A stretch of DNA of 62,612 nt, filler included, from Squatina squatina (lineage: Eukaryota), in assembly GCA_031763465.1 (NCBI GenBank). It is 3 parts of 3 records of this genome, joined end to end, with 100 filler letters (N's around TTAATTAATTAA, not from the genome) between each part and the next. Parts side by side here need not be neighbours in the genome. Positions count along the whole stretch, not along the records: positions 16,354 to 42,271 come from JARFOE010000013.1; 2 more parts are not named here. One strand, written 5' to 3'. The notes under the pieces were generated by a model. The model had not been told where the DNA came from. It searched no databases and worked only from the letters and a program-made list of their open reading frames with translations. Numbering within the stretch: position 1 is the stretch's first letter; every line of letters begins with the position of its first letter. The position numbers were made by a program, and so were the translations under genes. Positions 25,009 to 28,477 of the stretch are shown here, piece after piece.

Positions 25009-25151
25009 GTATCTATGGAGTTGGAAAAGCTGCAGTGAACCCACCTGCTCTTGCAATACTTAGTCACACACCCGAGGATGCTACACAAACCATAGCCTGG
25101 GTCGGCAAGGGTATTGTTTATGACACTGGTGGTCTCAGCATCAAATCAAAG
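25009..25151 (+). CDS. NPEPL1: NPEPL1-like M17 leucyl aminopeptidase exon
   Basis: 143 nt; GIYGVGKAAVNPPALAILSHTPEDATQTIAWVGKGIVYDTGGLSIKSK with metal-ligand K, D and catalytic K. Confidence 0.9.
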
Positions 25152-26261
25152 GTGAAGCAACTCTCCTGTTCATCTGTTCTTATCTTTGTAGATGACTCTC
25201 ACTAGACCTAATTTAGAATGAACAAATTTGATCCAATTGTTAAATGTAATATCTTCTTTTATAAATTAATATAAAATAAGTTAGATATACAAACAAGATA
25301 AAATCCACAAAATATTTTGTTTCCCCATACATTTAGAGGAGACAAATGTACCTGAAGACTTGCGCACCCGATATAGTAACAAGGGTTTTCAATGCAATGT
25401 CTATCGTTATTATCCTTTAAAATATATTTCAAAATATTACAGCTAGTATATATTTGTTGCTTATGTGTGAATTCCTTAGTTTACTGTGAATTTTTAAACA
25501 GTGTCTTAATTAAATATTAATTACTGTCATACAATGTTTCTGCCCCAGAAAATTTAATTTTACAAGTCTGGAATCTCATTCCTACAGAATGTTGGAGATT
25601 TTAAACATTTAAAATAAAAATTGGTTTTTAGTTTTTCTTTGTCTCTTTCTTAGTCCCATCTTTCTTTCCCGCTCTTTATTTCACTTTCTGTACACTATTT
25701 CACACTGAATTAAATATTCTAACTGACACTTCCTGGTTCAGACTGCATATCTCAGTAAGGATTCTTCAATGTGACTGGTTGAAGAAACATGCTGTTGCTT
25801 GCCCAGTTCTCTCTCACCACAGATCCCCTGAAGAGGACGCTGTGCTGAAAAAGGTTCTCTGGTAACCGTAAGCTGCCACTCAAAAGCTCGAGAAGTCTAG
25901 GGGCAGCTGTAAGCACAATGAACGGTGAGCGCCATTCTTTTGTTGCTGACCGCAAAATCCGGGCCAGCGTTTCCTGAGGTAATTTCCGCAAGTAGTTATG
26001 TTCAACAGGAAGACTGACCATTATCCGAGGATGGTTGTCAATCCCCATTCCCAAAATTGTCATTGCAAGAATATGCATCGCAATACCCATGTGAACATTA
26101 TGTAAAGGCCATGAGGATGAAGATAATAAAGTCGGTCCCGCAGAACTGCAATGCTCACCTCNNNNNNNNNNNNNNNNNNNNNNNNNNNNNNNNNNNNNNN
26201 NNNNNNNNNNNNNNNNNNNNNNNNNNNNNNNNNNNNNNNNNNNNNNNNNNNNNNNNNNNNN

Positions 26262-26408
26262 CTTAAGGCTAAAGGGATCAAGGGATACGGGGAGAAAGCA
26301 GGAACAGGGTACTGAAGTTGGAAGATCAGCCATGATCACATTGAATGGCGGAGCAAGCTCAAAGGGCCAAATGGCCTACTCCTGCTTCTTTCTTCTATGT
26401 TTCTATGT
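26262..26408 (+). mobile_element. CR1 LINE 3' tail
   Basis: aagggatcaagggatacggggagaaagcagg...gatcagccatgatc...ggcctactcctgct. Confidence 0.75.
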
Positions 26409-27019
26409 TAAGACAGCAAATATCAAAAGACTTCATATTGCAGTAGTCCTGATAACGGCACAAACTATACATGACTTCAGCCCATCCCTCTCCCAGCCAC
26501 ACAATCTCTCAAATATATATTTTCGGCCAATTTAGCAAAAAAAAACTCTCACATTCCTCTTTAACCCCAAAAACAATCTAGCAAGCTCCAGGAGCCCAGT
26601 ATCACTAGTCCCAGTTAACCCAGCTACCTGCTATAACTCTAGAGTTTTTCCATTCATAGGAACTTGTCCAGCTCCATTTTGAAGGCCTGCAGAGTATCCA
26701 CATAACTAAGGTTTTTTTATGTTTAAATAATTAAAAAATGTTTTTTAAATATTTATTTAAACTCTTACGCTGTTAAAAGAAGGCCCTACGCCTGCTTTTA
26801 CCAGGCGTAAGGGTTTCACAGGCATTTGCGGGGCAGTATTTGGGCAATTAGCTCAACTCTCAGCCAGTGAATGTCCATTTCCCGGAGATGATGAGGATCT
26901 GTCAAGCAACTTCAAGCAAGATCCGGGTTTTCGCATATGCACATCGCACATGGAGACTTGCGGTCATGGGCCTCAGAAAATTCGGGACAATGTAATTAAG
27001 AGAAGTTGCAACACACCTG

Positions 27020-27450
27020 GGTGTCAGCTGTGGCTCAATGGATAGCACACCCGCCTCTGAGTCACAGGGTTGTGGGTTCAAGGGTCTTGAGCACAAAAAC
27101 AAAATCTAGGCTGACACTCCAGTGCAGTGCTGCACTATCAAAGGTGCCGTCTTTCAGATGAGACATTAAACGGAGACGCCTGCTCTCTCAGGTGGACGTA
27201 AAAGATCCCATGGCACTATTTCGAAGAACAGGGAGTTATCTCCGGTGTCCTGGCCAATATTTATCCCTCAATCAACAAAAAAAAATTATCTAGTCATTAT
27301 CACATTGCTGTTTCTGGGAGCTTGTTGTGCGCAAGTTGGTAGCCACATTACAACAGTGACTACACTCCAAAAAGTACTTCATTGGCTGTAAAGTGCTTTG
27401 AGATGTCCGGTGGTCGTGAAAGGCGCTATATAAATGCAAGTTCTTTCTTC
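27020..27450 (+). mobile_element. Deu-domain SINE (SacSINE1-like), near full length
   Basis: A/B-box-like head gtggctcaatgg..gggttcaag, shared core with 11640-12065, tail gtcgtgaaaggcgctatataaatgcaagt. Confidence 0.82.
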
Positions 27451-27779
27451 TTACCATATTTTTATAGTCCAAAACAATTCTGATTAGCTCTGCACTTTGC
27501 ATTTGGCTTGCGTTCTCGATCATGTAGCACTTTCGCCTCAATTCATGTGCCATTATCTTTCCCATAAGTGCCTTTATGTGACACCTAATTAATTAACTAA
27601 TGAAACAATTATAAGATGGTGGCTTATTTGAGTTTGGTGTGATGTAGTTGCAACTTGAAACCTCTGTTGCTGATTACTAAACTACATTTACAAGTCAATT
27701 CTACTTTATAATGTCTTTTAAAAACCTTCTGTTGTGCTTAAGGGCACTGCTTCAACAATTTCATTTTTATTTTAATCAG

Positions 27780-27880
27780 GGCTTTAAAGAGAACTTGCAT
27801 GCATTGTTCTGTCTGGCTGAGAATGCAGTTGGAGCCAATGCAACGAGACCAGATGACATTCACCGACTGTACTCGGGAAA
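27780..27880 (+). CDS. NPEPL1: NPEPL1-like exon
   Basis: 101 nt; GFKENLHALFCLAENAVGANATRPDDIHRLYSGK; CAG/GTGAGT. Confidence 0.9.
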
Positions 27881-28353
27881 GTGAGTTAATGGATGGGCAT
27901 GTCTAACTGCATGGTCCCTCAATGTTTTTTCCTTAGCAATATCTTGGCATTGCAATGTGGATCTACTGGCACATTACTGGCTTACTTGAATGTGTCATCA
28001 GAATACAGTATTTAAACAAATAAGACTAAGACCACCTTTGTCATAACTATAACTGTTGGGTAAATAGCCATGGGATTTTGTGTTCTCAGTAGCATTTAGA
28101 AGAGATTATGAAGTTGACTGTAATGCTGCTTGTTAATACTTTGGTTACAGAATCAGACTAGTTTATTGTCTCAGATATTTGCAGTTTAACACCGTACTTT
28201 TTATTTTAACCCATGAGTACCTTCCAAATCCAAATATTACAAGAGTTTGCAGATAAATTCCATCACATATCGGCTTGTATGAATAAAATGAAGTGAGGCA
28301 ATAAGCAGTATCGGTTTTGACCTTTTACTTACAAAAGCTTCTCTACTTAATAG

Positions 28354-28477
28354 AACAGTTGAGGTCAATAACACAGATGCAGAGGGCCGTCTAGTTTTGG
28401 CTGACGGGGTGTCCTATGCTTGTAGAGATCTCAAAGCAGACATCATCTTAGATATTGCTACTTTAACTGGAGCTCAG
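28354..28477 (+). CDS. NPEPL1: NPEPL1-like exon with M17 signature
   Basis: 124 nt; [49 protein letters not shown] intact; phase matches previous exon. Confidence 0.92.

Follow-up and report, generated by a model that had tools for sequence, protein, structure and literature searches.

Three exons in a 62,612-nucleotide stretch of DNA from Squatina squatina (hereafter the window) very probably belong to a second NPEPL1-type gene, here termed clade B (informally 'NPEPL2') to set it apart from canonical NPEPL1 (A). B is most likely an ohnolog from an early-vertebrate whole-genome duplication, and is likely to encode a working two-metal M17 aminopeptidase in this shark. A preliminary description of this DNA had reported three NPEPL1-type exons with canonical splice sites, and all three were recovered, each bounded by AG and GT (Table 1). 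When scored singly against Pfam Peptidase_M17 the exons reached 50.8, 27.5 and 62.9 bits, all passing the cut-off of 25, and together they match a sawshark protein at 121 of 122 residues. Their phases are compatible, exon 2 running in frame into exon 3. Exons 1 and 2 are not consecutive: 26 codons are lacking between them, the intervening 78-nt exon being absent from the window. NPEPL residues before ~237 and after 384 are likewise absent. Searches with full-length relatives gave only three significant tblastn matches in the window, so most of the gene sits in gaps. High-copy repeats, presumably SINE- or LINE-like, lie within the NPEPL intron at window positions 26262-26400 and 27030-27450, where DNA runs of relatives reach depths in the millions.

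Table 1. Positions of the NPEPL exons, their neighbours and the sequence gaps in the window
Feature	Position	Strand	Remarks
Artificial spacer (44N, TTAATTAATTAA, 44N)	16254..16353	.	Left end of middle record
Three NAPG (gamma-SNAP) exons, upstream neighbour	about 21684-21771, 22217-22327, 23562-23693	+	
NPEPL clade-B exon, residues ~237-284 of shark ortholog P0221	25009..25151	+	Splice AG/GTGAAG
100-N gap, likely hiding the 78-nt exon with D293	26162..26261	.	Placement in gap inferred
NPEPL clade-B exon, residues 311-344	27780..27880	+	Splice AG/GTGAGT; B-diagnostic E314
NPEPL clade-B exon, residues 344-385	28354..28477	+	Splice AG/GTAAGT; B-diagnostic K371
PIEZO2 3' exons, tail-to-tail neighbour	33518..41704	-	Exons other than the last read by eye
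Artificial spacer, same composition (44N, TTAATTAATTAA, 44N)	42272..42371	.	Right end of middle record

The window consists of three unrelated records joined by two identical artificial spacers, with 43 N-runs in all; gene order across the 44N-TTAATTAATTAA-44N spacers is without meaning. The NAPG, aminopeptidase and PIEZO2 exons all fall inside the middle record (16354-42271), which is fragmentary (contigs of 0.5-3.7 kb) and splits the NPEPL exons over two contigs, 23835-26161 and 26262-28997. The earlier caution that these genes lie on separate contigs across 100-N gaps holds to the extent that, among the contigs listed for the middle record, none bridges two of NAPG, NPEPL and PIEZO2, but one spacer-bounded record contains all of them. 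The notion that the 100-N gaps join unrelated loci was dropped, as the CACNA1D-like and GRB2 blocks fall beyond the spacers. Since the middle record is fragmentary, outside evidence on the neighbourhood was needed. Elsewhere in the window, exons of an L-type calcium channel alpha-1 gene span 520-15644 (+; one exon was searched, with alpha-1D as best match), GRB2 exons including the last SH3 exon span 45657-48675 (+), and 53760-54250 is GC-rich (64%), each strand there having long open frames.

Searches with exon 1 and with a profile divided vertebrate proteins into two sets, most of the named ones being called NPEPL1 or 'aminopeptidase like 1'. A careful tree was built from 30 rows out of 226 NPEPL-type proteins of at least 380 residues, favouring two-copy species. 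Clade B was supported at 98/97 with the window inside it, and comprised an elasmobranch branch (100/100, window included) and a bony-fish branch (98/95) of coelacanth, reedfish, sterlet and bowfin; an earlier 48-row tree, a quick tree only, gave clade B a support of 97. The B branch separates off the remaining jawed-vertebrate rows (A), which form a rooted clade at only 77/69. Lamprey joins B at 73/69, and its placement outside A and B was not rejected (AU p=0.056). A, B and lamprey group together at 95/99 against a springtail and one unnamed protein, with no named amphioxus or tunicate row in the tree. Grouping the window with shark canonical NPEPL1 was rejected (AU p=1e-5), as was a single clade of all cartilaginous-fish copies, the arrangement for a shark-only duplication (AU p=0.0004). 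On the aligned sequences, the A/B duplication is thus shown to be older than the split between cartilaginous and bony fishes.

Direct comparisons agree with this division. The window exons share 117-121 of 122 residues with shark B and 104-105 of 122 with shark A, while A and B within one species are 69-74% identical in all nine pairs. Thirteen diagnostic columns, derived from 21 of the NPEPL-type proteins classified, assign 49 of 221 entries to the B type, leaving 172 others; the named B-type entries are all from elasmobranchs, coelacanth, bichir, sturgeon/paddlefish or bowfin, and the window carries the B letter at both of the columns that it covers (E314 and K371). A retained second NPEPL paralog, as the preliminary description had suggested, is accordingly upheld by the tree, the AU tests, the same-species pairs on different records and the NAPG-adjacent accessions presented below. 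The M17 phylogeny that it had proposed as a check likewise places the window in clade B and apart from the canonical shark gene.

Among the matches listed, 29 named species have B, made up of 13 sharks, 7 rays and skates and 9 bony fishes. Canonical A lies on a different record in 26 of these, identified by name in 25 and by accession series in Mobula birostris; the B species without A among the matches listed are Pristiophorus, Mustelus and Chiloscyllium punctatum, in a listing that covered 15 members of the shark A cluster out of 20. Both copies are listed in 17 elasmobranch species. A reciprocal loss (hidden paralogy), with sharks holding only this copy and mammals only the other, had been offered as an option; because the same species list A and B, it is excluded, and nothing was found in its favour. 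The accompanying proposal that the paralog was kept in cartilaginous fishes is correct for sharks and rays but too narrow, its range extending to coelacanth, bichirs, sturgeons, paddlefish and bowfin.

No B was found in tetrapods or teleosts among the best 120 matches listed. A representative search returned 10 of 150 rows with at least 68% identity to a reference, one of them clearly B-type and none tetrapod-like, a weak test with a 50%-clustered library. B has likely been lost in tetrapods and teleosts, as far as these database sequences indicate. For Callorhinchus, NAPG and a clade A protein are listed (P0397, P0358) but no B among the best 120 matches, and an extra loss in chimaeras is possible. 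Sturgeons and paddlefish have two A records per species against one B (P0123, P0413-P0421 vs P0400, P0054, P0399, P0402), which suggests that B went back to single copy after their own genome doubling.

The neighbours of the NPEPL exons in the window are NAPG and PIEZO2, not STX16 and PIEZO3/GNAS as for canonical NPEPL1. The last PIEZO2 exon (33518-33770, minus strand) is identical to solved PIEZO2 at 82 of 82 aligned residues, scoring 165 bits against PIEZO2 and about 140 against PIEZO1, and queries with STX16-NPEPL1 fusions gave no STX16 match in the window. With NAPG exons on the plus strand and this exon on the minus strand, the arrangement first described, co-oriented with NAPG and tail-to-tail with PIEZO2, is borne out. 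The possibility that the Piezo gene is PIEZO3, and the locus therefore the canonical one, was rejected on the 82/82 identity and the NAPG neighbour; no PIEZO3 sequence was compared.

The neighbourhood in other genomes was read from record lengths and accession numbers as a proxy for coordinates. Accession and tag numbers tend to track gene order, although not as a strict rule. NAPG and B have equal record lengths in all 14 species with both listed, and these lengths differ from that of the A record wherever A is listed. NAPG and B accessions or locus tags are at most two apart in 8 of the 14: Heterodontus (XP_067887338/339), Mustelus (XP_078071842/843), Cetorhinus (XP_078397177/178), S. canicula (XP_038664599/600), C. 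punctatum (XP_072425943/944 and chiPu_0005959/58), C. plagiosum (XP_043543686/688), Latimeria (XP_005996253/254) and Scyliorhinus torazame (scyTo_0017106/107, on a 96,942-base scaffold). They are 5-14 apart in three (Heptranchias and two Mobula) and hundreds apart in three (Stegostoma, Hemiscyllium and Rhincodon). The side of NAPG on which B sits, and its adjacency to PIEZO2, are visible only in the gapped window. An assembly artefact, in which scaffolding placed contigs of canonical NPEPL1 between NAPG and PIEZO2, would be compatible with the short, unbridged contigs of the middle record. It is nevertheless very improbable: the exons belong to clade B and not A, B is numbered beside NAPG in independent assemblies, and within the window unrelated genes meet only across the special spacers.

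The position of B recalls a known paralogon. A preprint (PMC13228305; section 6 and Figure 2 legend) describes gnas-piezo3-npepl1-stx-apcdd1l-vapb-rab22a as conserved across sharks, snakes and mammals and gives piezo2-napg-apcdd1 as the sister PIEZO2 block; the text of that preprint names no aminopeptidase in the PIEZO2 block, and its Figure 2B might show one. The window order NAPG-NPEPL-PIEZO2 puts NPEPL in the slot that matches the APCDD1L-STX16-NPEPL1-PIEZO3-GNAS sister block, and this is our main ground for regarding B as an ohnolog and not a stray duplicate. In human 18p11, GNAL follows PIEZO2. An ancestral block APCDD1-[NAPG/STX16]-NPEPL-PIEZO-GNA would then have doubled, the first daughter block becoming APCDD1L-STX16-NPEPL1-PIEZO3-GNAS and the second APCDD1-NAPG-NPEPL(B)-PIEZO2-GNAL. 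B could alternatively have arisen as a small-scale (segmental or transposed) duplicate in early jawed vertebrates that landed beside NAPG. The tree dates the split but cannot show its mechanism, and the lamprey placement (73/69 with B, p=0.056) leaves room for such an origin. We nonetheless think it improbable, since the slot of B by the PIEZO 3' end, downstream of an APCDD1-type gene, mirrors the NPEPL1-PIEZO3 slot, and GNAS and GNAL are reported as products of 2R (PMC5896119).

Evidence on splicing came from two RNA-type runs (two studies, two related organisms), each with one contig carrying all three exons without introns. In these contigs 78 letters lie between exons 1 and 2, and 27880 is joined directly to 28354; unique intron bins have next to no cover. 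The RNA type of both runs is a guess, and both derive from relatives and not from the window species. Among the runs listed, none is on record as RNA; all shares are small, and much of the depth falls on repeats. Ten of about 13 counted exon differences were listed, nine of them synonymous and one R/K. The spliced contigs and synonymous differences show that the gene is spliced and under purifying selection in relatives, which does not extend to expression in the window species. The outcome of the RNA-seq check for expression proposed earlier is the recovery of spliced contigs with all three exons from relatives. A NAPG-to-NPEPL read-through found no support (the NAPG exon is on a different contig from the NPEPL exons in both runs), which does not disprove it.

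The window retains the catalytic core so far as it is covered. The first exon encodes metal ligands K270 and D275 (GKGIVYDTGG) and catalytic K282, and the third encodes D352, E354 and R356 (NTDAEGR) together with the T380-G383 loop. Metal ligands K270, D275, D352 and E354 and catalytic K282 and R356 are therefore all present, and 10 of 10 scored active-site positions held by the window are kept, out of 12 in total; D293 and R446 lie in missing exons. The fifth metal ligand, D293, is present in the nearest orthologs P0003 and P0221, and the N-terminal domain PF18295, whose exons are also missing from the window, is found in P0003. Structure searches for solved relatives returned C. elegans leucine aminopeptidase 1 (2HB6) and trypanosomatid LAP-A (5NTF, 5NSK) as the closest (E 1e-113 to 1e-83) and no vertebrate NPEPL structure; the ligand residues of B correspond to those of T. 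brucei LAP-A, and both enzymes are distant relatives. A single-chain AlphaFold model from a 23-row alignment was of low confidence (mean pLDDT 51).

Active-site numbering was transferred through an alignment to T. brucei LAP-A and PMC5557676, where LAP-A is described as a hexamer with two metals and a bound bicarbonate, in which K289, D294, K301, D312, D371, T401, G404 and R467 surround bestatin. The first four of these T. brucei residues align to NPEPL K270, D275, K282 and D293, and the last four to D352, T380, G383 and R446. By analogy, the B protein would form a hexamer like other M17 enzymes, with two metals held by K270, D275, D293, D352 and E354, and K282 together with R356-bound bicarbonate would help clip N-terminal residues off peptides; the roles of E354 and R356 follow from established M17 chemistry. 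With 10 of the 12 positions held and all of these kept, the most likely function is that of an intracellular metal-dependent aminopeptidase overlapping NPEPL1.

B and A share PF18295 and PF00883, length class and the active-site set, at 69-74% identity. They differ in that B forms a separate clade, lies on another chromosome-scale record beside NAPG and is distinguished by the 13 diagnostic columns, and also in its longer branches, lower between-species identity (9 of 10 species pairs) and repeated active-site loss. Active-site residues are replaced in 6 of the 29 named B proteins, in three lineages, the remaining 23 keeping all 12 positions. The Heterodontus protein carries D275N/D293E/R356Q; those of four stingrays and devil rays carry R356S, L381S, T382A and R446Q/H, two of them also D293G; and that of Rhinoraja carries K270M/E354D. 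A further unnamed clade-B protein, P0432, groups as the sister of bowfin B (100/99); five of the 12 active-site positions are altered in it, and its N-terminus is unrelated. The altered proteins stay in frame across four lineages, and the A copies of the six affected species have an intact active site. Among non-B entries, 11 of 175 differ at active-site positions; in five of these the sole difference is a gap at R446, and three that were shown look mis-modelled.

These changes could mean that B is an ohnolog retained chiefly as a pseudo-enzyme with a non-catalytic role, such as that of a structural or regulatory subunit in mixed A/B hexamers, and that catalysis is dispensable. The contrast between altered B and intact A copies in the six named species, joined by P0432, points that way, as do the Hypanus and Mobula B proteins, which remain full length (534 residues) and 95.3% identical despite their active-site changes. 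Most B proteins, however, keep all 12 positions and the window keeps its 10, slow decay of a redundant copy predicts the same pattern, and single database models may contain errors; on balance we regard a mainly non-catalytic role as possible but rather unlikely. The B pattern in the sequences compared is consistent with slow decay as well as with retention for a non-catalytic role. On our preferred reading of B as a likely active ohnolog, it would be a partly redundant, faster-evolving copy, likely giving up catalysis in one lineage after another and no longer present in tetrapods and teleosts.

The gene symbol is, as had been suspected, apt to mislead, both copies being named 'aminopeptidase NPEPL1'. 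B is annotated in databases but not told apart from canonical NPEPL1, and because of this one shared name, the copies can become mixed in gene trees and in ortholog tables covering sharks, coelacanth and sturgeons. A literature search, with subscription journals mostly outside it and gene-tree databases not covered, found no paper separating two NPEPL1 copies and only PMC13228305 on the topic; the A/B duplication may already be recorded in gene-tree databases.

Cryptic-ohnolog retention is a well-known kind of event, with Pdx2 as a precedent (PMC2944030). Like Pdx2 and PIEZO3 (PMC13228305), B is retained in cartilaginous fishes and other lineages that branched early, and has apparently disappeared from well-studied species. 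Ray-finned fish are reported to have lost Pdx2, but those outside the teleosts still carry B. B fills a slot in the 18p11/20q13 paralogon, and as PIEZO3 belongs to the sister block and is reported as lost there by humans (PMC13228305), opposite losses stand side by side: on one block the human genome retains NPEPL1 but not PIEZO3, while on the other PIEZO2 survives and the NPEPL copy is apparently gone. How an ohnolog decays or turns into a pseudo-enzyme can be put to the test on the repeated loss of catalytic residues in B. More tentatively, NPEPL2, which goes by the name NPEPL1 in about 29 fish species, may be turning pseudo-enzyme repeatedly, in the horn shark, in stingrays and devil rays, in a skate and in a bowfin relative, each with a different set of catalytic residues lost and the reading frame preserved, a possibility that we hold to be doubtful. 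If true, it would indicate a selected non-catalytic function of NPEPL proteins, and would provide a naturally occurring range of active and inactive copies with which to probe the poorly understood human NPEPL1.
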